Assembly: GCA_963787415.1 (NCBI GenBank)
Contig: CAWBCO010000002.1
Coordinates: forward strand, 84,962 to 148,961
DNA: 64,000 nucleotides
Source of the DNA: an uncultured Solirubrobacterales bacterium
Lineage (GTDB): Bacteria; Actinomycetota; Thermoleophilia; Solirubrobacterales; 70-9
Direction: 5' to 3'
Part shown: in pieces, positions 39,709-54,670 of the stretch
How the letters are laid out: each line of letters opens with the position of its first letter
Position numbering within the stretch: position 1 is the first letter of the stretch
Program-made: the position numbers and the translations under genes
Notes under the pieces: model-generated
Database searches by the model: none
Seen by the model: the letters and a program-made list of their open reading frames with translations, nothing else
What the model was told of the DNA's origin: nothing

Positions 39709-42524
39709 TCAGCGCTTCCCACGTCGGCGCCGGCTATGGCGTGTCGCCCTCTTTGACCCCTTTGCCTTGCAGGCGGTCTTGGTCTTCACCTGCTGGGTGA
39801 GAGTTGCGCCATTTTGCCCGCTGAATTCGACGGTCGAGACAGTTGGAGCGCTGCAGAGACTCTGGGTGTTTGAGAGATAGCCCTGCTTCCCGCCAAAGAG
39901 CGTAAAGCGGAAGTTTCCGATGGGAGCGTCGGGGACGACAGGAACAACGGTCTTCAGGCGGCCGTTTTGCACCGAGGAGGATTCTGCCTCGGGGGTGAGC
40001 ATCACCTGCCCGCCAAGGATGAAGGCGAGGTGGGGCAGGACGCCGTAGCCAGAGACAGCGTAGACGGGGCCTTTGAGAGGTGTTTCGAGCAGGGGCGTGG
40101 TGGTGGTTGCTTCGCCAATCGGTTGACGGCCGGCGCACTGATCAGCGGCCAGTTCGGTCCTGTCGCAGAGATTGCCAAGGTGGCGCTGGTCGATCTCAAA
40201 TGCTTTCGGAAAGCGTGACGGAAAGCGTTTTGATGTTGGCGTCGCCGGCTCTGGTGTTGAGTTCGATCGCGAGGCTCGGGTCCTTGCTCCGAGCGGTCGC
40301 TTTGCGGCCGCCGAGCTGGGTGATCGTCATCTTCGGCTTGAATCCAAGAGTTCCACAATTGACCGCATGAAAGTAGGAACTGAAGTTCGCCACCGTACCC
40401 TGATCACCGACTCCCTGCGAGGCAACCGAGAGAGGCGAACAGTTGGTCGGATTGATCATGAAGTTGGGTTTATCGATATTGACCTGGATCGAGCGCAACC
40501 GCAGCGGGATGCCGCCGATGATCTCGGGGACGGTTTCAGAGTCAGCGATCACGTGGGCGTCTAGCGGGTCGATGTGCAGGGCGACTCGGACGACGACCGT
40601 GCCGTAGTCATAGGGACCGGCGAGGGCAGGCGTGACCGCCACCAGTGACAGCGGGGCACCCTGGAAAGGTCCGGCCATGTAGATCCTTCCGACTGCATGA
40701 AAGGGGTGGGATCCGGGACCGGCAGCGACGTTGGAGGTGCCAATTTCTGAAGAAGCCGGGCAGCTTGGGCTTTCTTGCTCGATACGCCCCAGAGTCTGCG
40801 CCGCCTCTGCGATCGATGCCTCGGGGCAGTAGCTGACGCCGTGGAGGTTTGCGGTCAGGCCGGGCGGCATCGTGAAGTTCAGCTTGCCGAGAAACTGATC
40901 GCCGTCTTCGCGGTTGAGTTTCAGGGTGAAGGAGCTGTAAGCACCGGCCGTCGGGGTCGAGGTGCCCGCTTCCAAGCTCGGATTGAATGGGCGAATCTGA
41001 CCGGGGCACTGACTGCCGTTAGGACCCGATTCCAAACCAAAGACCTGATTTGACTGCTGGTCGGCAATTGCTTCATTCCAGGGAAAGAAGTCGGCATTGA
41101 CCGTGTAAATCGTGCATACAGTCGGGGTCGCCATCAGGCTTCGTTCTCCGGCAAATAGATGAATGTCAAATTCATCGACCGGAACCTGCGGAAGTTCTTC
41201 GAAACTCACGGTCAGCTGTCCAGTCTGCGGGTTGGGGTGAACTGATCCGACAAACTTGGCGTTAATTCCAAACCCTGATGCAACCATGAACAGCCGGTAC
41301 TGGTCGCTCGGTAGCGGTTCGCCAATGTAGACTGCACCTTCGAGAGTGCCATCTAGGGCAACAGTATGTAGTGCAAACGTTCCAATCTTTGAATTATTTG
41401 GACATTCCGCAGGCCCCTCCGAGCTGAACCTCGCCTCGGCCTCGGTGCACTTCGACTGTCCGTCCGCGGCGTCCGGATTAATCGTCAAACCAGGCGGCAA
41501 GTTGACAAGTGCGGATTTGATCTCAGATGGAGATACCGCAAAACCCTCAAATTGGGGATCACTCAAGTCGACGTTCAGCCCTGAAGGCGAATCGGTTTCC
41601 GTCGTCGTCGGGCCGGAGTAAAGCACCGGTTTGAATACCTCCTTTTCACACCCAGTCGTTGCGGGGTAGCTGGCTTCTTTGCTGGAGTGGTGTTCAGGGT
41701 CCTCGTAGGTTTCGACTTCGAGCGTCGTGGGCAAAGGTTCATCGGTGCAGGTCGTCGGGTTATCGGTGAGAGGGTGGACCGGGAGATCCGCCGAAATGGC
41801 TTCACTGATGCAGCCCGTCCCCGCCAGGCCTGCGCAACCCGGAGGATTCCCAGGAGTTCCCTTGGGGAAGCGCTGGGAATCGTGGCTCGCCTCAGCCGGA
41901 AAACCCCACAGCGTCATCGCCACTCCAGCGAGGGGGAACGGCCTGTGTAATCTCGGCGACGGTGAAGCGAAGGCCATAGTCTGAGGAGGTCCGCACGCCA
42001 ACGGGGATCGAGATCGGTATGCCGAGGGTCGGTATGATGAACGAGAAGCGGGCGGTTTCTTCGGCTCCCGTTTCCATGTCATAGATCGGCGCGGTGCCGA
42101 GAAGCAAATCTGGCTCGTGGTCGTAATTGGCCCGAATCGTGATCAGCCCCGCCTGGGAGCTGACGGGGCATTCGTCCAACGCGAACAGAGATGCAGTACA
42201 GCGGGAGATAGCGTTCGGGTTGCCAAATACGCCACGCGGAGCGTCGAAAACCACGTTTCGGGCGGCTTCCGGCGCTCCAGGTTCACTGAGTGTGAAAGCA
42301 GTTTCGAGGTCAGGATGGCCGCCGGCCTGGGTGGTCGAGGTGTTTGTTGAGAACGATTCAATGTTCTCGCTCGCTCGTGCCGACGATGCGCCGATCACCC
42401 CGATTAGTAGGAGAATTGCACCGAAACAGGCGGCGGCCGTGCTCTGAAAGCGGAGACAGTCACGATCAGAGCCGCGCATCGAGGTAATCGGCGCGTTGCT
42501 CGTAGTATGGCTTGGTGTGCTCAT
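39709..42524 (-). pseudogene. about 940-aa secreted Cys-rich partner protein A (unknown family), two apparent frameshifts
   Basis: Signal peptide AACFGAILLLIGVIGASSARA and the motif STTQAGGHPDL. Frames switch near 41935 (FTVAEITQAVP / LAGVAMTLWGFPAEASHD) and near 40196 (TLSVTLSE / AFEIDQRHLGNLC). Basic C-terminal tail KAKGSKRATRHSRRRRGKR. Confidence 0.55.
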
Positions 42525-42534
42525 CTCAGGCTGA

Positions 42535-45500
42535 TCATCGGCTTCGACGGTGGTGCCTCGGACTGCCATGGTGGCGGTTCGTCTTGCGATGCTTTTTCAG
42601 ACACTTACCGTGCCTTCTGAGGAAATCGTGCTTGCATTTGGACTGAGCCTGTGATGGAGCGTTACCGCTGTTGCCCGGATTGACGTGGACATTGGGCTGC
42701 GGAGGCGCCGGGGTGCCGGGTCCATGACACTCATCAGATGCCTGGCACGGCACCGGTGGCGGCGTGTATGCAAAGCCGCCAAATTCGCGGGCGTCATAGA
42801 CCTTGACGACCGGCCCGCTCTGGTCCTGAGGGGCAAGGGAGTCGCGGGTGAAGAAATAAACGTCGGTCCCAGTCGCACTCGCGGAGAGTAGGCTCGAATC
42901 GAAGGCGCTAGCGCCGGAGGAGATCAGCTGGACGGTGCCATTCTCCCACTCATATACATCCTGTTTGTTGTCGGTGTCGCGAAGCACAAGAGCGTCACCT
43001 GAGTTGAAAAAGACGCGGCCATCGTTGGTCAGGCTGAGGCCATTTGAAGCCAAAGTGGCGGGACCGCTGGGGGCCACACCGGTCGATTTGCACGAGACGC
43101 AATCCAGCTTCCCGCTCAGCGCTCCATACCGATAGACCTCCGAATGACCGGTATTTTCGTATTCGTCTAGCTTCTGGGTGGTGTCAAAGGCGGCGTATTC
43201 CCCGCTCGGCGTCACCTGGAAGTCGGCGGTGTGCCGGGTTCCCGCTTCCTTGACGCCGTCGACCACGGTCGGATCGTTGGGCGCCAGGGTGGCGACGAAC
43301 TGAGGAGCAGAGCCGGGGCGAACCACGTAGAGGTTGGGCTGATTGGCGGTGCCGTTTGAGGTACCGTCGAGGAGCTCTGGGGAGAGGAAGTAAACCGTGC
43401 CGTCTTCAGAGGCCACTCCCCCACCCCCGCCGATCGCAACCACGCCGCAGTTGGGGCTCGCTTCGAGGCTATTCCAATGAGCGCCTGCTTCATTTGCAAC
43501 CGGATCGCAGGCATTGGAGTTGCCGGCACCTTCGGTGCCGGTTGAGAGCAGCTGCAGCTTGAGGTTGCCTTCGGGGCTGACTTCTGCCTGATAGAGGTCG
43601 GCGCTTTCATCGGTGTCTTGGGCCAGCAGTTTGTCCTTGGTCGTGAAGAAGACCTTGGAGCCGTCTTCGCTCATCCCGTCATAAAGGACGCCAGAGGTGG
43701 ATCCGGGAGCGAGGTCGATCGTTTTGGAGGAATCACCGATGTCCATGTAGGGATGCCAGTAGACGTTGTGATCGGCGTCTTCAGAGACCTTCTGGGCGAC
43801 GATGATGCGCGAGCCGTCCTTGGAGATGTCCAGCTCTGCGATCCCGTTGGGATCACCTGGGGAGTGGCAGCTGCCCGATCCCTGCAGGCAGGGGAGGTTT
43901 TCTCCTTGAGGGGTCTTTGAGACGACGTGGGTCTGCCCCGTGGAGAGATCTCGGTCATAGATCGAAACGTCGCCATTGTTATTGGCGTCTGGCTCAAACT
44001 GGGAGACCGAGCCAAAGATGAAGTGGGAGCCGTCGGCAGAGAAGTACTTGGCGATGTGGCCGTCTGGCTTCGCGCTGATGGGCGGTTGGATCGAGCCGGC
44101 CATTCCCTGCACCAGGGAGCCGCTTGGCAGGTGCAGGGGGATGCCGGTTTCTATTCCTTCGCCAAAGCAGGGGGCGCAGAGCGCTTCTCCAGAGAAGGCG
44201 AAGGTTTCCAGGTTGGGGGTGGCTTCGGCCACGGTTGAGGAGAAGGGGTCAGAGGCGGGATCGATGTTTGAGGGGATGCCGACGTATTCGGTCGACCAGC
44301 CTTCGGCCGTACGGGTGGCGACGTAGGGGTCGACGCCATCGTTGGTCGGATGACCGGTACCCGAGATGCCACCGTCGTGGACTCCGTAGAGAATGCGCGG
44401 CGGGCTTTCGGCTTGGGAGAATCCACCAAATGGGGCTTCACCAGGCACGAGATCAGACTCAACATCGTAGCCGCCGGCATTGGGCGAGGAGACGCGCTCA
44501 TAGGCCCGACAGTCGAGCAGTCCCGCGGCCCCGGTCTGCTGGCGCTGGTGGGCGTTGGGGCAGGGATCATGGCCCAGTTCGACAAACGGGAAGGTGGTGA
44601 AGGTCTCGTCTGGACCAAACGTCGGAGTCAGTTTGTTCGTATTAACTGCCGCAACGCGCCAATGGTAGGTCGTCCCGGGGGTGAGGTTTTCCAAATCACC
44701 GGTTACGCTCTCAAACGTCGTGCCACGTCCCATCGTCGTCTTCGGAGTTGACAGACATTGGCTGATCGCACAGTTATTGGAACCGTATTCAAAATAATAT
44801 TCCGTGTACTTTGCACCAGGTTCATTGAAGTTGGTCGCGTTGCTTTCACCCGGATAAATTTCGGCGGCGACAGTAGCCACATCAGTATGAACTTCTGCTG
44901 TAGCGATCTTGCGGAATTCTGGCGGCGCGGGGGGTGTCTTGAAAGATTTTGCCGGCCCGACGCTCGTGCCGAGACTGTTGGAAGCAACGATCGAGACACT
45001 GTATTCCGCATCGGGTTCAAGACCCGTCACCGGTAGGCTGACTTTTGTCGGACCGCTCGGAACACCCGCGTCCGCCCCTCCGACGGGGGCTTCGAGAGTG
45101 GGCCCGCTTCCACATGTCTCGAGTTCGGGGGGCGTTGATTCAGACCACTGACACGAGTAATAGCTATATGAGAAGTAGTAGTGAGTATCGAGTGGTTCGG
45201 CATTGAACGAACCGTGGAACGTTGCCGTAGTCCCGTCGAGTTCAGTCGGTTCTTCGGTTTCCAGTTCGCCGACCGCACCCGTGGTCGTAAAAGTCTGATC
45301 GCTGCCATAAGTGGTTCCGATCCCGTTGGTGGCGACGAATCGGTAGTGGTAGGCCGTTTCTGTGTGCAGGCCGGTGAGCGTCGCTGCCTCCGCCGTCGGG
45401 GTTGGACCACTCGGCGACCCAGCATCTTCGCCTGGGGGAGTGGCTGTCGTCTGTCCGTAGCTTTCTGATTCGCCCCATTCGAAATAGTAATCGGTGTCTT

Positions 45501-47265
45501 CGTTGTTACCGACGAATGAGCCGTGCAGCTGGGCGCCGCCTGCTTTGATCATCGTCGCGGCTTCTGTGCTTAACCCTTCGACGGCTGGCCCGAGGGTCGT
45601 AAACCTAACGTCTTCACCGACGCTCGTACCCAGCCCATTGGTGGCGACCACTCGATAGTGATAGGTGATTTCTGCGCTAAGACCGAGGAGATCAAAATGT
45701 ACTTGGGTTGGGCTCGGACCGGCGGGAGAACCGGCGTCTTCTCCCGGCGGGATCGCAGTTTTGTGACCGTAGCCTTCTGTTTCGCCCCATTCAAAGTAGT
45801 AGTGGGTGTCTTCGCCATCTCCCACAAAGGATGCATTCAGCGTTGCCGCCGTTTTCGCAAGCCCAGTCGCCCCTTCGGTCGTAATCTGCGAGACGTAGTG
45901 TGGAATGAACGTTTGATCCCGGCCCTTCTTGACACCGTTCGCGTTGCTGACCACGATGCGATAGTGATATCGAGTCTCGGTCGAAAGGCCGCTGATCGTT
46001 GCGCTGGCTTCCGTCGTAGCGTCGTAGGGCGTCGCGGGTCCGCAAGGGACTTTCGATCCATATGAGGTCGTCGGTCCGTATTCGAAACTGCAGGACTCCA
46101 CGTCTCCGCCTTCATTGGGATCTACCGTCGCCGACAATGTGGCGGTGGTTGGGGTTATGCCGGTCACGGTCTCGTTACTGATCTTCGGGATGACGACGTT
46201 TGGGGTGAAGATGTCGACCGCCCCTTTCCCAGCGTCCGCCACATAAACGTAGCCTTCCGAATTGACTGCGATGCCACCGGTGAGTCCGGTAAAGTTTTCC
46301 CCTTCAGAGGGTCCGGTGAGTTGATCCAGGTATTCCCCAGAGGAGGAGAACTCATCAACGACTTGGTTTCCGCTGTCGATGATGAGTACGTTTCCGTTTG
46401 TTGGATCCACCGCGACGCCAGTCAGGTCGCTGCTGAAGGCGGTGGGTGCCCCAGCGCCGGTGAATTCTTGGACGAACGTCCCGCTTTCGTCGAACTCATC
46501 AACTACGCTTTTCGCCTGATCGACTACATAAAGATTCCCTTGGGTATCGGTCGCAACATTCTGAATGCCCCCGAAGTTCCCGCTTGGCGTCCCGGTAAGT
46601 TCGTTTCCACTTATATAGGTCTTTCCCGGCTGCCCGGATGCACTAAACGGGGCTTCCGTGTGGTTTCCGACGAATGCCGTAACGCCGTCACAGCTGCGGG
46701 CGATGTAGACGCGGCCATTCGAAGGGCCGGATGAATTGTCGACCGCAACTCGATCTGTCCCGCAGCTATTTTTCGTTTTCCATTCTTCCGTGAAACTACC
46801 CAGGCCGCTTTCGTACACGTCAACCACCACTGGACCAGAGTCGGCAACGTAGAGGTGGCCATTTGCATTATTTAGGGCGATGCTCAGTATGTATCCGCCA
46901 TGGTGGCCACCACCATTCTGGGTTCCGAGCAGTGTTTGTGATGGGTACGCATTGTACTCAGAGATCAAACCCCCACTTCCGTAATCATCAATCCAGACGT
47001 CGCCACCTCCATCGATGGCGAGGCCCTGGGGGTTTCCAAAACCCGTGATCTGGGAGTCAAACGTCCGATCGGCGAAAGCGGGAGAAGCGGTGATTGCAAC
47101 GATGACCAGAGACGCGAAAGCGGCGAGGAGCGCGCTAATACCCAAGGGAATCCTCCGGCACTCTGATGGCGTGGACGACCAGTCTCTGCTGCGGGCATTC
47201 AATGAGCTTAGGGTTGGAAGCAGGCCCTGCAGCGCCCCCCGCCTTGTGCTGCCGCGCCTGATCAT
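42535..47265 (-). CDS. giant secreted protein: NHL-repeat propeller, five FN3-like repeats, PD40/TolB-like repeats, Cys motif and poly-basic tail
   Basis: 1576-aa intact ORF with signal peptide GISALLAAFASLVIVAITASPAFA. NHL-like GHLYVADSG, GNLYVVDQAKSVVDEF, NVLIIDSGNQVVDEF, GYVYVADAGKGAVDIF. FN3-like repeats with Y(Y/F)FE(Y/W)G ... YHYR.VA.N. PD40-like SADGSHFIF, SKDGSRIIV, SEDGSKVFF, TNDGRVFF. Tail KCLKKHRKTNRHHGSPRHHRRSR. Confidence 0.75.
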   Translation of the reverse strand: MIRRGSTRRGALQGLLPTLSSLNARSRDWSSTPSECRRIPLGISALLAAFASLVIVAITASPAFADRTFDSQITGFGNPQGLAIDGGGDVWIDDYGSGGLISEYNAYPSQTLLGTQNGGGHHGGYILSIALNNANGHLYVADSGPVVVDVYESGLGSFTEEWKTKNSCGTDRVAVDNSSGPSNGRVYIARSCDGVTAFVGNHTEAPFSASGQPGKTYISGNELTGTPSGNFGGIQNVATDTQGNLYVVDQAKSVVDEFDESGTFVQEFTGAGAPTAFSSDLTGVAVDPTNGNVLIIDSGNQVVDEFSSSGEYLDQLTGPSEGENFTGLTGGIAVNSEGYVYVADAGKGAVDIFTPNVVIPKISNETVTGITPTTATLSATVDPNEGGDVESCSFEYGPTTSYGSKVPCGPATPYDATTEASATISGLSTETRYHYRIVVSNANGVKKGRDQTFIPHYVSQITTEGATGLAKTAATLNASFVGDGEDTHYYFEWGETEGYGHKTAIPPGEDAGSPAGPSPTQVHFDLLGLSAEITYHYRVVATNGLGTSVGEDVRFTTLGPAVEGLSTEAATMIKAGGAQLHGSFVGNNEDTDYYFEWGESESYGQTTATPPGEDAGSPSGPTPTAEAATLTGLHTETAYHYRFVATNGIGTTYGSDQTFTTTGAVGELETEEPTELDGTTATFHGSFNAEPLDTHYYFSYSYYSCQWSESTPPELETCGSGPTLEAPVGGADAGVPSGPTKVSLPVTGLEPDAEYSVSIVASNSLGTSVGPAKSFKTPPAPPEFRKIATAEVHTDVATVAAEIYPGESNATNFNEPGAKYTEYYFEYGSNNCAISQCLSTPKTTMGRGTTFESVTGDLENLTPGTTYHWRVAAVNTNKLTPTFGPDETFTTFPFVELGHDPCPNAHQRQQTGAAGLLDCRAYERVSSPNAGGYDVESDLVPGEAPFGGFSQAESPPRILYGVHDGGISGTGHPTNDGVDPYVATRTAEGWSTEYVGIPSNIDPASDPFSSTVAEATPNLETFAFSGEALCAPCFGEGIETGIPLHLPSGSLVQGMAGSIQPPISAKPDGHIAKYFSADGSHFIFGSVSQFEPDANNNGDVSIYDRDLSTGQTHVVSKTPQGENLPCLQGSGSCHSPGDPNGIAELDISKDGSRIIVAQKVSEDADHNVYWHPYMDIGDSSKTIDLAPGSTSGVLYDGMSEDGSKVFFTTKDKLLAQDTDESADLYQAEVSPEGNLKLQLLSTGTEGAGNSNACDPVANEAGAHWNSLEASPNCGVVAIGGGGGVASEDGTVYFLSPELLDGTSNGTANQPNLYVVRPGSAPQFVATLAPNDPTVVDGVKEAGTRHTADFQVTPSGEYAAFDTTQKLDEYENTGHSEVYRYGALSGKLDCVSCKSTGVAPSGPATLASNGLSLTNDGRVFFNSGDALVLRDTDNKQDVYEWENGTVQLISSGASAFDSSLLSASATGTDVYFFTRDSLAPQDQSGPVVKVYDAREFGGFAYTPPPVPCQASDECHGPGTPAPPQPNVHVNPGNSGNAPSQAQSKCKHDFLRRHGKCLKKHRKTNRHHGSPRHHRRSR

Positions 47266-47298: not shown

Positions 47299-50077
47299 TT
47301 AGCCGTGTTCGCACGGCAGGGTGTCGCCAGCTTCTGATTCTGGTTGTCGCTTGCCCCGATTTTGGCCAACGATTTGCGCCAGCGCCCCCAGCGGCGCCTT
47401 GCAGATGTTGGCACTGTTGACAAGGAGGCCCTTCTTGCCGCCGTCGAGGCGAAGATTGAACCTAGAGATGGGCGCATCGGGTACCGTTTTGAAGGAGGTA
47501 CGCAGGTGACCATCGATCGTTTCGATCTTGCCGTCCAGGTCGATGTCGATCTGACCGTCCAGGGCGGCAACGACGTCGGGCAGTCCGCTCTTGTTTTCTG
47601 GAGCAGAGCGCAGATACACCGGGCCCTCAAGCGGCTTTTCAAGCAACGGGGTTTCCGCCATGGCGGTACCGATGATCGAGCCCGCTGGGCATTTGTTGGC
47701 GGCGAATTGGACCCCGGTGCAGGGGTCTTTGATGTGTGCGTTGTCGATCAACTCCGATTGAGGCAGGGTGACCGCGGTTGAGGCTATATTCGCTTCGCCG
47801 GGCTTGGCGCTCAGGTTGGCGTCGAGGCGGGATTACCGCTGTGCTTGGTCGATCCGGAGAGCTTCAGCGCAAGCTTGGGGGCGAAGGGGAGGGTGAAACA
47901 GTTGGTGGCCTGGAAATGCTCGCTCGGGGTCGCCAAGCCTCCTTCTTCGCCGACCAATTCGGCGTCGACTGAAAGTGGGCTGCAGTTGGTCGGTTGAGGG
48001 TGAAGCCAGGACGATTCAGATCTATTTGGAGCGATCGCAGCCGCAGGGAACTCCGTCAAGGATCCTGGGCAACGGGCCGAACATCGCGGTGATCTGTGCG
48101 GTCTCGGGGTTGACGTCCAGAGCGGCTCGAACGACGACATTTCCGAGATCATATGGACCCGAGATCGCCGGCGTGATCACCGCGAGGGAGAGCGGAGCCC
48201 CATTGTATGGTCCCGCCAGATAGACGCGCCCCTCAAGATAGACGGGATGGGCGCCGGCCCCAGCGCCGGTAGCTGCGGTTCCAATCAGCGAAGATCCCGG
48301 ACAGACGGGGGCTGATTCCTCTTCCCTCCCCGTGTAGCCGGTACTGGCCGCTTTTGCCAAAGCGGAATCCGAACAGTATTCAGTTCCGGCCAACTTCGCA
48401 GCGAATCCAGGCGGAGTCGTGACCTTAACAACACTCAAATTCTGGTCACCGTCCTTGCGGGCGATTTCGACAGTGAACGGGGAGTGAGCACCACCGGTAC
48501 TATTTAGCGCTGACGCCGTAAAGCTCGGGTCAAATGGTCGACGCGGTCCAGGACAGGGCGTTTCGTCAGGGCCGATTCCAAGGTAAAGTACTGAACCGAG
48601 GTCTGATCGGACAGCTGGGCATCCAAAGGCATGAACTACTAGTGACCGGAAAGGTTCCGCACTGAGTCGGTGTAGCCAGCAGCCCACGTTCAGATCCGAA
48701 AAAATGAGAATTAAATTCTGAAACTGGACTCTGAGGAAGATTTTCAAAGGAAACGGTTAGCTGCCCGGTTTGGGGGTCGGATACACCGATCCAATAAGCT
48801 TCACGTGAGTAGCGATCGATCAGCCGTCAACAAATAAGCCGATAGCGATCGTTGGGTTCAGGCGTACCGAGATAGATATAGCCGGGAATCGGCCCTGGAA
48901 GCGCACTGCTGGTCAGTGTTACCGATCCTACCTTCGAGAATTCTGGGCACAAAGCTGCTTCCATGGTCCCCAGCCTGGCTTCTGCGTTTGTGCAGGAGGT
49001 CTTTCCGTCGGCGGCATTAGGGTTGATCGAAAACCCACGCGGAAGCGTCAACGGTAAGAGATCAATCTCCGACGGAGACGGCGACGAGGCGCTCTGCTCC
49101 TGGGGAACACTGAGGTCCACGGCAAGGCCCGAAGCCGAATCTGCCTGCGTAGTCGTTGGCTGGGCGTAAAGGCTCGGATTAAAGCTGAGCTGGTCACAGC
49201 CAGTAGTCGCAGGATAGGTCTGTTCGTCTTGGGTAACGCTTAAGTCATAGCCAAGGATTTCCAGTGAAACAGGAAGCGGACCCGTGCAGGTAGTGGGACC
49301 GTCGAGAAATGGAATTGCGGGACTACTCGAACGGCGTCGGCGAGAAACAAGGCCAAGTGTCCGGAGAGGGCGGATAATAATTACCGCAGGTCTGGTCCTT
49401 TCCTTGGGAATTAAACGGTGCCCGTTCTGCGTCATGACTCGAACTATCGGGCACGCCCCACAGCGCAATACGAACACCTTCTGGCGGAATTGCGCGTGCT
49501 CAAGTCCCGGCGCTATGGTCGCATCAAGACCATAGTCACTATTGGTTCGCGCGCTGAGAACAATAAACGCCGGGGTGCTCGTAAAGGGGATGTAGAACCC
49601 CACAAGCCCCGCCTGTTCGATATGGGCACGAGATTGTAGAGGGCAGCTGGAAAATAGGAATTAAACAGAATGCTATGTACAACTCCGACCTGTGAATCGG
49701 GAGGGCAAGTATGCTCACCTCGAACTCAACGGCCTGCGGGCATCGTGGAGTCGCGTGCGGATTGCCAATTACGCCTGTGGGCAGATGGGTCGTTATGTTC
49801 TCAGCGTCCTGGCAGAAGCAGCTGGTTGGAAAGTTTTGCAGATCTCGATTCTTGAACTTGAATTCCGTGACGTAGATCTGGATGACCGCCGGCCTGAGTA
49901 GTAGAGGGGGTCGCGGAAAAGCTGATTATCGAGAATTTCCGCCTGAGCCGAAGCCGCAAAGCAAGCGAGCCCAAGGACCGGCCCCAAGATGAGTCCGACA
50001 TACCTGATGGCAATACGCGCCCACCGGCCCGAGCCCGCGAATCCACCGTTCTTGCGCTCCGCGGTCGATTGGCTCAT
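47299..50077 (-). pseudogene. partner protein B, heavily decayed paralogue of 39709-42524
   Basis: Homologous pieces lie in at least five frames or ORFs (49793-50077, 48827-49603, 48022-48747, 47811-48152, 47299-47751), including STTQAGGHPDL, PATTGCDQLSFNP and GPYNGAPLSLAVITPAISGPYDLGNVVVRAAL. AT-richer patches occur near 48.6-48.8 and 49.6-49.7 kb. Confidence 0.7.
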
Positions 50078-53000
50078 CGATAGCCTCCAAAGACCGACGC
50101 GCTTCCGTGCCTATGGGTCCGCACTCTCCCCCGCGGGGACCGCTTTCGTGAATGTCCCCTGCGGTGCTTGACGCGATGGGGTCTGCGCCGAACACGTTTC
50201 GAAGATCCGTTTTTCAGCACGTTACCGCCGGAGCCGACAAAGGCTCCGGTTCCATTGGAGCTCGGTGTCGGAGCCGAACTGCCAGAGCCGTGACACTCGT
50301 CTGCCGCCGCACACGGAGCCGCAGGGGGGACGAAGGGAAAGCCACCGTCAACTCGGGCGTCGTAGAACTTCAAGGAGTTGCCGTTGTGGTCCTGCCCGAC
50401 CAGCGAATCATAGGTTGAGAAGTAAGCGTCGGTTCCATTCGCGCTTACTCCGACCAAACCCGCAGTTGACAGTACTTCGTCTCCCAATATGCTGAGTCCG
50501 CTGTCGTTTTCGCCGGTTCCGGCGGAAATGAGCTGGGGTCGGCCGTCGACGTACTCATAAACATCGCGTACTTCATCGGTGTCCTGAGGTACGAGAGCAT
50601 CACCGGTCGAAAAGAACGCACGACCATCGCTTGTCATGAATCGACCGTTGAGACTCGCCTCAACATCGGTGGTGGGAGAAGCGCCATCGGGAAGGCATGA
50701 GACGCACACCAGGGCTTGGGTAGAAGGATCATATGTATACATCTCAAGATATCCCGCGTTTTCGTAGGAGGTGACCTTATCGGCCGTAAGAAACGCCATA
50801 GGGCTTCATCAGGAGAGACCTGCATCCTCACGATCGGACCCGCACTGCATGACGACGAGCCATTAAGGCAATAGGTCCCCGGGGTGAAGGTAGTCACATA
50901 CTGATCCACGCCATCGCGATAGGCATAGAGATTTTGAGCCCCTTCAGACCCCCGATTGCCATCGAGCTTCTGCGGTGAGTAAAAATAGACATCGCCACTT
51001 TCTTCTGCGACCGAGTTGTCCGAGATCCCGTTTCCGCCAAGGCCATCTTGGAAATCCTCATAATTTGCATCGCGGCCCGTTTCATACGGAACCACGCCGC
51101 ACTTAGTGGTCCAGGACGCGTCGCACGCATCGGAGTTGCCAGCCTGATTTTCTCCCAAAGAAACCAGGGAAATCTTGTTGGTCGCTTCGCTCCACATGTA
51201 GAGATCGGTGCTTGAGTCCGTATCGGAGGAAGTAAGCTGTTCTTCAGAGGTAAAGTACACCTTTGAACCATCGTTGGTCATGCCTACGAACTTGACATCA
51301 TGGCCCTGGGATACGTCATAGGTAACCGCGTCGTTGACCCGCATATAGAGCTTGCGTTCCACCGGTTCCCGATTCGGGTCTGAGCATCCCGAGAGGACGC
51401 ACGTTGCCGAGTTCTTCGTCGACATAAGGATGCGTGAGCCATCTGTCGACACAGCCGGAAACGAGATGAAGTCGTATTGGTCGCCCAAGTCGCCTGACTC
51501 CTGCGGAATGTTCGCGCCACTTTCCGTTTTGGAGATCAGAGTGACCGTTCCGGTCTGAAGGTTATTGTCGTAGGCGGAACCTGGAGCGCTCGTCAAGCTT
51601 TCAGGTGCAAAGGCTGGGCCCGGTGTGCTACCGCCTGAAAACTGATCGAAGTGCGTGAGCGCCGCGGACGAAAAGAAGTAATGAGTGAAATCCGGAGAGG
51701 CCTGGGTGGCGCCATAGAGGTTTTCTCCTTCTTCAACCGTGCTCACATTGGTCGGTAGGCGACCGAGTTCGTCCCCATTGGCGTCCCAGAGATATGGGGC
51801 ATAGGAGCCAACATCTTCTGGCCCTTCAGGTCCTGAGAATCCACCTCCGTCTCCGTCATTCCAATCGATGAATTGGTCCATGTTGAGGTCGGTCAGCTCA
51901 CCGCCAGGGGCAGAGAGAATAAAGCCGCTCTGCGCGGGAGGCCGACCCGCCTCGTTTGTTTGATTTCCGTGAATCCCGACATAGTGCGTGACCCATCCTG
52001 TGTTGGTGCGGGTCGCGACATAGAGGTCGCCGAGGTTGTTGATCGCATCCCCAGCGCCGGGAACCGTCCCCAACAGCCCGCCAAAGGAGAGGCGGGACGG
52101 ATTGGTCGCAACGGATGAATTTGGTCCTTCCGGAAAGAGGGCGGTCCCTCCGGCGTATTCTGGAGAGACAAGCTCATAGGCTCGACAGTCGGGTAGGTAC
52201 TGGGCGCCGGTCTGCTGTCGAATGTATTCATTTGGACATGGCGGCGGAAAGAAGCCGAAAGTCTGATCTTCGCTCGCAGTCGTCCCCAAGGCGTTGGTGG
52301 CCACGATTCGGAAGTGGTAGGTGGCGCCCTTGGTCAGCCCGGCGATCTCGACGCCGACGGGATGGGCCACGTCTGCCGATCCGATTTCGACATCGGGGAT
52401 TGGGGCGCTGAATCCGTAGGTTGCGGTAGTTCCGTATTCGAAGTGATAATGCGTGTCGAGGCCCTCGGGGTCGACCTTTGCGTTCAAGTGAGCGCTTTCT
52501 GCGGCAAGTCCTGACGAGGAGACACCTTCAACGGAGGGCGGCTGGAACTTGAAACTTGGAGCCGCCACGTTGGGGGTTCCTGCTGCATTTGAGACGGCGA
52601 GCCGGTACCTGTATGTCGTTTCAGGAGGCAATCCCGATATGTCGGCGCTGACGGCGGACGGTCCAGTCCCGGAAGGCGTCGGATTACACGGGACGCCATG
52701 GCCAAGGTTGAATGGATTGTGGGCGGCCGGTTGATAGCTGGCTTCGTCCACGTATTCGAACATGCAGGTCGTGATCGGGCCGCCACCATTGGGATCGACC
52801 GTCGCATTCAGGGTCGCGCTGGTCTCGGCCGCGGTTCCATTTGTCACACCTTCATATGTCACCTTGGGCAAACTGAAGGTGGGACTGAAGATGTCGACAA
52901 GGTGGTGAGTGACATCCGGAACATAGAGATATCCGCTGCTACTCACGCCGACTCCCCCCGGGTCAAAGCTATCGTAGCCAAGGGAGCCCGCGGGGGTTTC

Positions 53001-53900
53001 AGCGCCTGTGATCTTTGTCTGGTAAGTGCCCGATGAATTGAATTCATCGACGACAGCCGGTTCTTCATCTTCGCCGGCGTGTTCTCCTCGGTCAACCGCA
53101 AGGATGTCGCCCGTCGTCGGATCCGTCGTAACGGCGGTCACATCTCCGAACGGTTCACCCGGGGGGCCGGTGATTTCACGAATGAATACGCCAGAGGGTT
53201 CGAACTCATCGATCACATTGCGTCCCTGCTCTCCGAACTGCCCCTGCTTGGCGTCTACAACAAGAATATCTCCGCTTGTGGCGACCGCGACTCCCACTGG
53301 TGCGCCAAAATGGGCGCTAGGCGTCCCGGTCAGCTGATTGCCAGAGATATAGCTAGCAGAGGCAGTGAATTCGACAGGGTTTCCGCTTGAATCCACCGAG
53401 TTCACGGTGGCCCCTTCGGTTTCAGCCGCGTAGACGCGTCCTTTATTGGGTCCACTCGTGTTATCAACAGCAACGAAGACATTTCCGTTACCGAAGGGAC
53501 CGAGGGTATTGAGGAGGGTCCCCGTCGATGAGAAGCGGTCGACTGTGTCTCCGCAGGAAGTCGCGGCATAGAGATCGTCATCTGATTCATCAACCGCCAA
53601 GCTGTAAACCCTTTCCCCGTTACAGCTAAAGCTTGAACCGGTGATGTGCTCAGCTAGTCGTTCGTTGGCGGAGTTGAATTTGTATATGCCGCCTCCAGCG
53701 TCTCCGATCCAGGCGTTGTTAGCTGAGTCGGTGGCAGCGGCCAACGGGGTTGCGAGTTCGGTGGTCAGTTGAGATTCATAGGTGCGCCCGGCGAAAGCCG
53801 GGGCGGCAGTGAGAGCCAATGCGCCGAGTGAAACAATGAGGGCAGCAAGAGCAATGCACGGGCCTCTGCGTTGGACCGGGGCAATTGGACAGGTGATCGC
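50074..53900 (-). pseudogene. second giant NHL / FN3-like / PD40-like secreted protein, frameshift near 50800 and no start codon ahead of its signal peptide
   Basis: The 1061-aa ORF (50634-53819) ends in junk. The homologous C-terminus (MAFLTADKVTSYEN ... PCAAADECHGSG ... basic tail) continues in the 50074-50799 frame. In-frame upstream codons read VQRRGPCIALAALIVSLGALALTAAPAFA, but only the TTG at 53819 is available as a start. Confidence 0.65.
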
Positions 53901-54670
53901 GCGCCCAACTCGGTCTCGATTGACCTTTTGCAGCTGTCAAGGCGTCCGAGATCTCGATCCTAGGTCTCTCACCCTCTGCCCCACTTGGGCGCACCGCCCG
54001 TAGGTGGGAGCCCCGAAACTCGGGTCACTGCGATGGAATCTGGTTCCACTCTTGGAGGGAAAGCTGCATCACAGACGCCGCCCGAACGGCCGAAGAAACC
54101 AGCAATGATGTTTGCGGTTGAGCGGCTTCTCACCCGTTCAAGCGCTAATCCCTCTAGTCCCATAACTCCCTGACTCAGCCCTCATATCGTTGGCTCAGAA
54201 AGCCCGGATCCCTGCAGACCCCTCCAATTTCGGGGATCAGGAGTGAGTTTATATGAGTAGGAAAGGATTTGTCAAGTAAGAAACTGTCCTACTGGCTTGG
54301 TGCGTACGGGTTGACTCCAACGCACGGGATGCCGCCTTGTGCTGGCGATCGGGCGGGATCTCTCGCCAAGAACGCCTATAGAAGCCGCGGGTGCGGCTGT
54401 GACGCCGCCACCGGGCAACAGACCGCGCGATGTCGGTTCCGATCATTTGGAGCTAACGGGTCCGCACCGCTGGCTTAGGACCGGGTCGATGGCCTGGCCG
54501 CACTGTCAACGGTTGGCCCGGTTCCACGAGAGAGCCCTCGGTCTGCTCATCGCTCCATTCTTGGCGCCCCTCCGAACGTACTCGATCTGATGTTTCGAGG
54601 AGCTCTGTATTGACAATCTGCTCAGCGGGTCGCGCCCGCAGCGGGAGAAGCGTGGGATCGCACCCTCGTG

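Follow-up and report, generated by a model that had tools for sequence, protein, structure and literature searches.

The 64,000-nucleotide window analyzed here (C2:84962–148961) belongs to a 3.35-Mb genome of an uncultured Solirubrobacterales bacterium, assembled in nine contigs with 63.6% GC, and carries genes for two giant proteins (Giant 1 and Giant 2) and two partner proteins (Partner A and Partner B). Giant and partner genes come in pairs, and both products bear tails. We describe the C-terminal ends of these proteins, which in Giant 1 consist of a cysteine loop, a spacer, a small Cys-x10-Cys hairpin (the “knuckle”), and a polybasic tail, and of which the knuckle and tail form a portable element found on unrelated predicted secreted proteins. 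Coordinates without a contig name are window positions, and features assigned to open reading frames (ORFs), alignments, AlphaFold2 (AF2) models with their predicted local distance difference test (pLDDT) scores, or a hidden Markov model (HMM) are listed below.

42535–47265, reverse strand: Giant 1, an intact ORF of 1576 aa
47071–47157, reverse strand: predicted signal peptide of Giant 1, RRIPLGISALLAAFASLVIVAITASPAFA, then D (our own signal-peptide heuristic)
42721–42750, reverse strand: PCQASDECHG, an acidic Cys-x5-Cys loop closing the Giant 1 propeller (alignment of 77 proteins, AF2)
42637–42720, reverse strand: Pro/Gly/Ser/Thr spacer, PGTPAPPQPNVHVNPGNSGNAPSQAQSK, predicted disordered (AF2 pLDDT below 50)
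42595–42636, reverse strand: Cys-x10-Cys knuckle, predicted β-hairpin, CKHDFLRRHGKCLK (alignment, AF2, HMM)
42538–42594, reverse strand: polybasic tail of Giant 1, KHRKTNRHHGSPRHHRRSR
50074–50805, reverse strand: C-terminal part of Giant 2 as a separate ORF, in a different frame from 50634–53936
39709–40326, reverse strand: last frame piece of Partner A, with a domain end ...LCSAPTVSTVEFSGQNGATLTQQVKTKTAC that passes directly into the basic tail KAKGSKRATRHSRRRRGKR (39712–39768)

Giant 1 reads, from its N-terminus, as a signal peptide, an NHL propeller, Fn3-like repeats, a TolB/PD40-like propeller, the Cys loop, the spacer, the hairpin, and the polybasic tail. It matches the Pfam families fn3, NHL, and Pur_ac_phosph_N, and its C-terminal propeller is modeled by AF2 at a pLDDT of 87.6, with Foldseek matches to TolB and S9-peptidase propellers. 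A sequence-only reading of the window had singled out three C-termini, all of which end as it described: 42535–42810 (−) as VVKVYDAREFGGFAYTPPPVPCQASDECHGPGTPAPPQPNVHVNPGNSGNAPSQAQSKCKHDFLRRHGKCLKKHRKTNRHHGSPRHHRRSR, 50074–50301 (−) as DECHGSGSS...KRVRRRPHRVKHRRGHSRKRSPRGRVRTHRHGSASVFGGYR, and 39709–39792 (−) as QVKTKTACKAKGSKRATRHSRRRRGKR, each followed by a stop codon. The Giant 2 piece has the motif PCAAADECHG at 50287–50316 and a hairpin-less tail at 50077–50199.

Only the tail of Giant 1 sits in an intact gene as assembled. Giant 2 is broken by a frameshift near 50805 (ORFs 50634–53936 and 50074–50805) at an indel site without a long homopolymer, Partner A (39709–42596) is spread over three frames and so has two breaks, and Partner B (47299–49925) is spread over at least five. 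These breaks reflect either real decay within a fast-turning paralog family or assembly indel errors. About 6 of the 22 motif-bearing ORFs genome-wide are likewise short fragments. Together with adjacent Fn3-ending proteins, giants and partners make up the largest paralog group of the genome (68 ORF pieces, 157 kb, 4.7% of the genome).

The last 427 residues of the giant have more than 2000 homologs, of which the named ones belong to Solirubrobacterales and in one case to Actinobacteria. Relatives number 479 in species-representative genomes, and the best 80 of these 479 all lie in metagenome-assembled genomes (MAGs) of uncultured Solirubrobacterales or Thermoleophilia. The figures on anatomy given below derive from 121 proteins, and those on identity and entropy from an alignment of 77.

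In the giants, the propeller ends in ...YDARxxGGF and is followed by P-C-x-A-S-D-E-C-H-G, in which C, E, C, and G are invariant and A, S, D, and H reach 90% conservation or more among the aligned proteins. This loop is the most conserved stretch, at 71% identity to Giant 1 versus 61% for the propeller. The pattern C-x5-C-[HR]-G is kept in 120 of the 121 best database homologs (119 with C-x5-C-H-G and one with CAAADECRG), and motif and basic tail occur together in 72 of 79 loci, so that homologs do retain the feature, whose complete loss in related taxa would have counted against the sequence-only reading. AF2 places a short helix at the loop, with a pLDDT of only 57–67. Within the genome, about 22 ORFs carry the motif with a basic tail; distant giants and paralogs have loop variants (CEGGEACHG, CEGDACQ, CQGEACQ, and CSGDACR) and keep the same downstream parts. 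PCxASDECHG is confined to giants, and tail carriers of other families have no Cys loop. The motif is a family-specific end-piece of the giants’ TolB-like propeller, separate from the portable tag, and the earlier notion of a single signature spanning motif, linker, and tail has to be given up: the element that travels is the Cys-x10-Cys hairpin with its Lys/Arg/His (K/R/H) tail. The loop cysteines most likely bond to one another, since one paralog (C7 254278) has, besides loop and knuckle, not a single cysteine within its final 260 residues. For the same reason we set aside a Zn(Cys)4 site linking the motif to an upstream CVSC, which had been considered as C233/C236 and C351/C357 are all invariant.

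Downstream of the loop, the spacer measures 23–33 residues and is rich in Pro (19%) and Gly (14%), with Ala, Thr, and Ser besides. It had been taken for plain low complexity; however, it keeps the family pattern PPxIxTxxGxxGN. The knuckle follows the consensus C-[KR]-x-G-[FY]-[VI]-[KR]-[KR]-H-G-[KR]-C-[VI]-[KR]-K, with a turn His that is ∼80% conserved, and AF2 models it as a β-hairpin (strands 392–395 and 398–401) at a pLDDT of ∼86. After the motif, 105 proteins have two cysteines, 14 have none, and one has a single cysteine, and the spacing is exactly 10 in 101 of the 105. Because cysteines come as two or none, the knuckle is probably closed by a disulfide. In four proteins (P0130, P0131, P0136, and P0139) the knuckle is duplicated in tandem (CRKGFVLRKGKCVRKKCRKNFVKRNGKCVKK), which argues that it is a discrete structural unit.

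The tail itself spans ∼20 residues, composed of 21% R, 21% H, 20% K, 10% G, and only 1.3% D and E together, and K/R/H account for 62% of the last 25 residues. Runs of the HHHHHHH type occur. Sequence identity across the tail is just 28%, and column entropy falls from 2.27 to 1.50 bits once K, R, and H are merged; the tail thus conserves charge rather than sequence. Partners have neither spacer nor knuckle: a Cys ends their last domain, and 8–20 basic residues follow at once. These basic tails are conserved in the partners of other MAGs.

The absence of an LPXTG motif and of a hydrophobic C-terminal helix, noted earlier by eye, was confirmed. Downstream of the motif, the 17-residue Kyte–Doolittle mean peaks at −0.8 in Giant 1 and does not exceed 0.92 in any of 120 homologs, and a pattern scan found no LPxT[GAS] in the last 100 residues of the 121 homologs, which together exclude that a transmembrane helix or LPXTG had been overlooked. 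Pfam and NCBIfam searches with whole proteins, 87-aa ends, and 29–32-aa tails at E-values up to 10 returned nothing credible (TIL and Toxin_2 at chance level), and the tail matched no LysM, SLH, GW, CWB, WxL, or type IX secretion system (T9SS) C-terminal domain model at the same limit. The statement that the tail corresponds to no known sorting or anchoring signal therefore stands, in that no model in either library covers it, and no paper describing a knuckle-plus-polybasic tag was found in the literature.

We quantified the tail across the genome in 2771 genes called by codon-usage scoring with greedy non-overlapping choice, counting as a tail gene any whose final 30 residues include ≥13 K/R/H and ≥5 K/H. 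Tails have 13–22 K/R/H in this stretch, versus a genome mean of 4.6 ± 2.6, which together with the recurrence and conservation of the motif places the feature well outside chance. The 39 predicted tail genes comprise 29 of the giant/partner/Fn3 superfamily, two ribosomal proteins, one small membrane protein, and seven unrelated secreted proteins, and ∼35 predicted secreted proteins of the genome bear the tail. Among the unrelated carriers are three small β-sandwich proteins with GGSGGS or PTPTP linkers, a repeat propeller protein, a protein ending in an Ig-like domain, and one built of repeated GxYT(I/V)xxLPxGxYT(V/I)EFW units. A knuckle HMM of 30 columns separates 12 true C-terminal matches (≥17.7 bits) from noise (≤8.8 bits), and all 12 end 10–38 residues before the stop.

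Enrichment among secreted proteins had been set beforehand as a test on which the anchoring idea could fail, and it was found. Signal peptides, predicted with a home-made heuristic in a strict and a loose version, are present in 23 of the 39 tail genes versus 410 of 2732 others under the strict version (odds ratio 8.1, p = 5.5e-10) and in 26 of the 39 under the loose one. Tail genes scored as negative are mostly frameshift fragments or the two ribosomal proteins. The tail occurs on 16 of the 36 secreted proteins of at least 800 aa. Carrier bodies are strongly acidic, with a mean of −5.0 per 100 aa versus −0.45 for the genome and a net charge of about −116 in Giant 1. The charge of the tail, by comparison, is nearly constant (+8 to +15) on bodies ranging from about +9 to −119, and small carriers with nearly neutral bodies (−4) bear an equal tail, so the tail behaves as a fixed-size unit whatever the size of the body.

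Beyond this genome, the knuckle has a narrow and uneven distribution. Across 201 genomes sampled class-wide, the HMM recovered it in this genome and five weak cases only, and within the same GTDB family 41 of 151 genomes, from 22 of 58 genera, have it, at up to 41 copies per genome. Giants are present in 31 of these 151 genomes. Four giant-free genomes from other genera of the family (G201, G221, G223, and G232) have 14–41 knuckle tails each, in the form KKCKKG[RKQ]KLKKGKCVKKKRKK, on unrelated families with signal-like N-termini. These carriers include choice-of-anchor Q domains (NF041518, 77–89 bits, cut-off 25) with CSLREA N-termini, TSP3 repeats, and P-domains, and the tail sits directly after the choice-of-anchor Q domains. 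Choice-of-anchor domains owe their name to the alternative anchors that they precede, such as LPXTG, PEP-CTERM, or T9SS tails (10.1101/2023.03.06.531300), and the CSLREA N-terminus matches rhombotarget A (TIGR04212), a GlyGly-CTERM protein. In a set of 1.84 billion representative proteins, knuckle matches in one or two copies number 57, of which 54 lie within 40 residues of the C-terminus, and 18 further matches are tandem hairpin arrays in TIL/EB proteins and in bacterial PG_binding_1/DUF11 proteins.

One giant-free relative, G221, has a row of five to six genes whose unrelated secreted products all bear polylysine Cys tails (e.g. KKKCKKKKGKKSSAAAAKKKCKKKKKR), at C1 ∼1475.8–1481.2 kb (L116:11862–17247) and L117:4899–6773. 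Where genomes of the family have no knuckle, their choice-of-anchor Q proteins end with the domain itself or with a basic stub of 4–7 residues behind it; five loci (L121, L123, L126, L130, and L135) show ERKAR, LKRKRSR, LVKRKRRR, and GGKAKKRKR. Because of these stubs, polybasic C-termini may be wider in the family than the knuckle profile detects. The idea that tail-free relatives had swapped the tail for another anchor was discarded, as only shorter proteins or short basic stubs were found there and no LPXTG. In the genome under study, the best choice-of-anchor Q ORF (C1:16000–17100, −) leads on, by way of two further reading frames, to an Ig-like domain downstream and is apparently another frameshifted secreted gene.

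The genome gives few hints of a dedicated machinery or of a different anchor. The genome has one sortase gene and apparently one classical LPFTG substrate (C3:867909–868265 and C3:398595–399281; …SLPFTGFLAIPVLIVGVGLLGAGVAMRLRLRSG…), which makes sortase anchoring look marginal in this organism, and tail carriers do not belong to the sortase/LPXTG substrate class. Two LCP ligases are present. No Omp85 was found in the genome, so the organism is probably monoderm, and an outer membrane or lipopolysaccharide was dropped as a target of the tail on the same ground. Neighborhood clustering detected no recurrent enzyme beside the giant/partner cassettes, only TetR-like regulators, a serine recombinase, and small secreted families. 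The 33-kb region around five tail genes in G221 likewise held nothing obvious on inspection of its ORFs alone, with no family-library search of them.

Haft (10.1101/2023.06.07.544157) set out eight attributes of C-terminal sorting signals, of which the module shows six and, in part, a seventh (attribute 3). It stands at the extreme C-terminus (attribute 1; the 12 matches in this genome and the 54 of 57 global ones), recurs within genomes (attribute 2; ∼35 tails here and up to 41 knuckles elsewhere in the family), has a terminal basic cluster that greatly exceeds the usual 2–5 Arg in length (attribute 5), and is carried mostly by proteins with a signal peptide (attribute 6), which are unrelated to one another and whose homologs elsewhere have no tail or another signal (attributes 7 and 8). 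As for a conserved motif (attribute 3), the knuckle has two invariant cysteines, its consensus Gly, Phe, His, and Gly are conserved at between 50% and 90%, and the invariant PCxASDECHG occurs in giants only. The hydrophobic transmembrane segment (attribute 4) is clearly absent, and for this reason the module, which would work like a C-terminal anchor tag, falls outside the tripartite class. With the tripartite signals (LPXTG/sortase, PEP-CTERM/exosortase, GlyGly-CTERM/rhombosortase, and MYXO-CTERM/myxosortase) it shares the C-terminal position, the many copies, a leading motif with conserved residues (here Cys), a basic cluster placed last, signal-peptide-bearing carriers that are otherwise unrelated, and the position after choice-of-anchor Q and CSLREA domains. 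It differs from them in having a hydrophilic Pro/Gly spacer instead of a transmembrane segment, ∼20 K/R/H instead of 2–5 Arg, and no cognate enzyme that we found.

The reading we favor, with about an even chance of being right, is that the C-terminus is a modular, non-covalent, charge-based surface-retention tag for strongly acidic ectodomains. The protein would be exported through its N-terminal signal peptide; a disulfide would staple the Cys-x10-Cys knuckle into a small basic β-hairpin, and this hairpin and the ∼20 acid-free Lys/Arg/His residues would bind anionic envelope material by charge. LCP-attached wall glycopolymers, anionic membrane lipids, and matrix polyanions are candidate targets. 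The Pro/Gly-rich spacer of ∼27 residues could serve as a stalk, the acidic ectodomain would be repelled outward, and the high His content (21%) may strengthen binding at acid pH. The sequence-only reading had proposed a non-covalent envelope-anchoring or sorting signal, and that general proposal gains from the enrichment on secreted proteins, the conservation in homologs, and the position after choice-of-anchor Q domains, all of which are consistent with such a function. Two of its three examples lie in frameshifted genes. As to its proposed binding to anionic wall polymers, the genome has no TagF and no pyruvyl transferase.

Several observations weigh against the retention tag. With those two enzymes missing, no known anionic wall-polymer pathway was found in the genome. 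Within a single family the spread is all-or-none and patchy (22 of 58 genera, 41 of 151 genomes), and outside it the knuckle is all but missing, a pattern shown by dedicated sorting systems. A generic charge anchor would not need tight Cys-x10-Cys spacing or an invariant Cys loop, and Sec export of ∼15 positive charges is energetically awkward. Signal peptides and gene calls, moreover, both come from our own heuristics.

Some of these same points would suit an enzyme-processed, helix-less sorting signal, in which an enzyme recognizes the Cys loop or knuckle, cuts off the tail, and links what is left of the protein covalently to the wall or to a lipid. Such a signal would account for the full or partial match to Haft’s attributes other than the transmembrane segment (10.1101/2023.06.07.544157), for invariant cysteines as in MYXO-CTERM-type signals, for the patchy all-or-none spread with many copies per genome, and for a motif conserved above the level of its domain. 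We nevertheless consider it unlikely: no transmembrane segment presents the signal to a membrane enzyme, no candidate enzyme recurs beside the genes, the tail sequence drifts freely save for its charge, and the Cys loop is absent in non-giant carriers, as is the knuckle in 14 of 120 giants. It is equally doubtful that the module represents a new helix-less class of prokaryotic sorting signal, recognized by a factor in some Solirubrobacterales genera and perhaps pH-switchable through His and processed at Cys. A self-assembly or matrix tag is a further minority possibility, in which tails would bind acidic neighboring bodies, extracellular DNA, or acidic exopolysaccharide and thereby form a lattice at the surface or the matrix of a biofilm in place of a wall anchor. 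The extreme acidity of the bodies opposite basic tails, the tails on both members of giant–partner pairs, the 4.7% of the genome given to the family, and a composition like that of nucleic-acid-binding tails fit this scenario, but the same tail is borne by small, nearly neutral bodies (−4), tail charge does not scale with body charge, and giant-free genomes place the tail on many unrelated enzyme-like carriers.

The Cys/His-rich end might alternatively capture Zn, Ni, or Cu, given four adjacent potential ligands in DECH, the ∼80% conserved His of the knuckle turn, the His runs, and the 21% His of the tail. We regard this as quite improbable, since a tail with 41% Lys and Arg would repel cations, giant-free genomes have almost pure Lys tails without His (KKCKKGRKLKKGKCVKKKRKK), and the parity of the cysteines fits disulfides. 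Least credible of all, at next to no probability, is functionless low-complexity drift or a translated assembly or frameshift artifact. The frameshifted Giant 2, Partner A, and Partner B, and two homologs (P0034 and P0051) with ends that look out of frame, would suit such an origin, but it is already refuted by conservation of the feature in 120 of 121 homologs and in 72 of 79 loci from many MAGs; the exact Cys spacing, the exclusion of D and E, and the enrichment on signal-peptide proteins also speak against it.

Charge-based retention at the cell surface has precedents, as basic teichoic-acid-binding regions exist in Lactobacillus S-layer proteins and in Listeria InlB. In K-Ras4B and MARCKS, a short disordered terminal run of Lys/Arg binds an anionic lipid surface by charge, although these act on the cytoplasmic face, work with lipid modification, and show no homology to the tail described here. 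LysM, SLH, GW/SH3_8, CWB1/CWB2, WxL, and PG_binding domains (PMC5817068) resemble the module in the proposed principle, reversible retention on envelope polymers partly by charge, but are folded domains of 40–90 residues, usually in tandem and with Pfam models, as opposed to a 12-residue hairpin with a disordered tail. A review of surface display in monoderm bacteria includes no polybasic-tail anchor (PMC5817068).

The knuckle shares the shape C-x2-G-[FY]-x6-C with a Gly turn with the C-terminal β-hairpin of EGF/TIL/EB modules, and its profile picks up TIL and EB proteins. Those modules have six to ten cysteines versus two in the knuckle, which is stand-alone, extremely basic, and always terminal. 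The tails’ weak TIL matches (E-values of 0.02–0.04, 14.5–15 bits versus a cut-off of 24–24.5) stay below Pfam thresholds, and the resemblance is confined to the terminal hairpin. Two bacterial DUF11/PG_binding_1 proteins, P0126 and P0140, have the same Arg/His-rich hairpin (CPPGTVRRHGQCVR) at their C-terminal end, but in 6–11 tandem copies and with no long polybasic tail, and the likeness seen is one of motif; their arrays may be relatives of the module that bind the envelope in a different lineage.

The Solirubrobacterales abound in soil and have hardly been cultured, and this genome spends 4.7% of its length on a superfamily that bears the tag. Related genomes place it on enzyme-like proteins by the dozen. 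Once defined, the tag would make the surface proteome of the lineage predictable with an HMM of hairpin and tail, and it flags a family left as “hypothetical protein” in curated databases. If the retention reading is true, the module adds a helix-less, probably enzyme-free member to the known C-terminal anchoring signals, and it could serve as a display tag of ∼35 residues for actinobacterial hosts.

Two gene families accompany the cassettes. A TetR-like paralog family of 24 members (C6:215302–216363, C6:196108–197427, C2:700032–701420, C7:259109–260555, and others) occurs within four genes of giant/partner cassettes 11 times, which suggests that each cassette has its own regulator. Small tail-less proteins with signal peptides (150–355 aa), which form a family of 25, sometimes adjoin the cassettes as well (e.g. 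C2:495311 and C7:298145).

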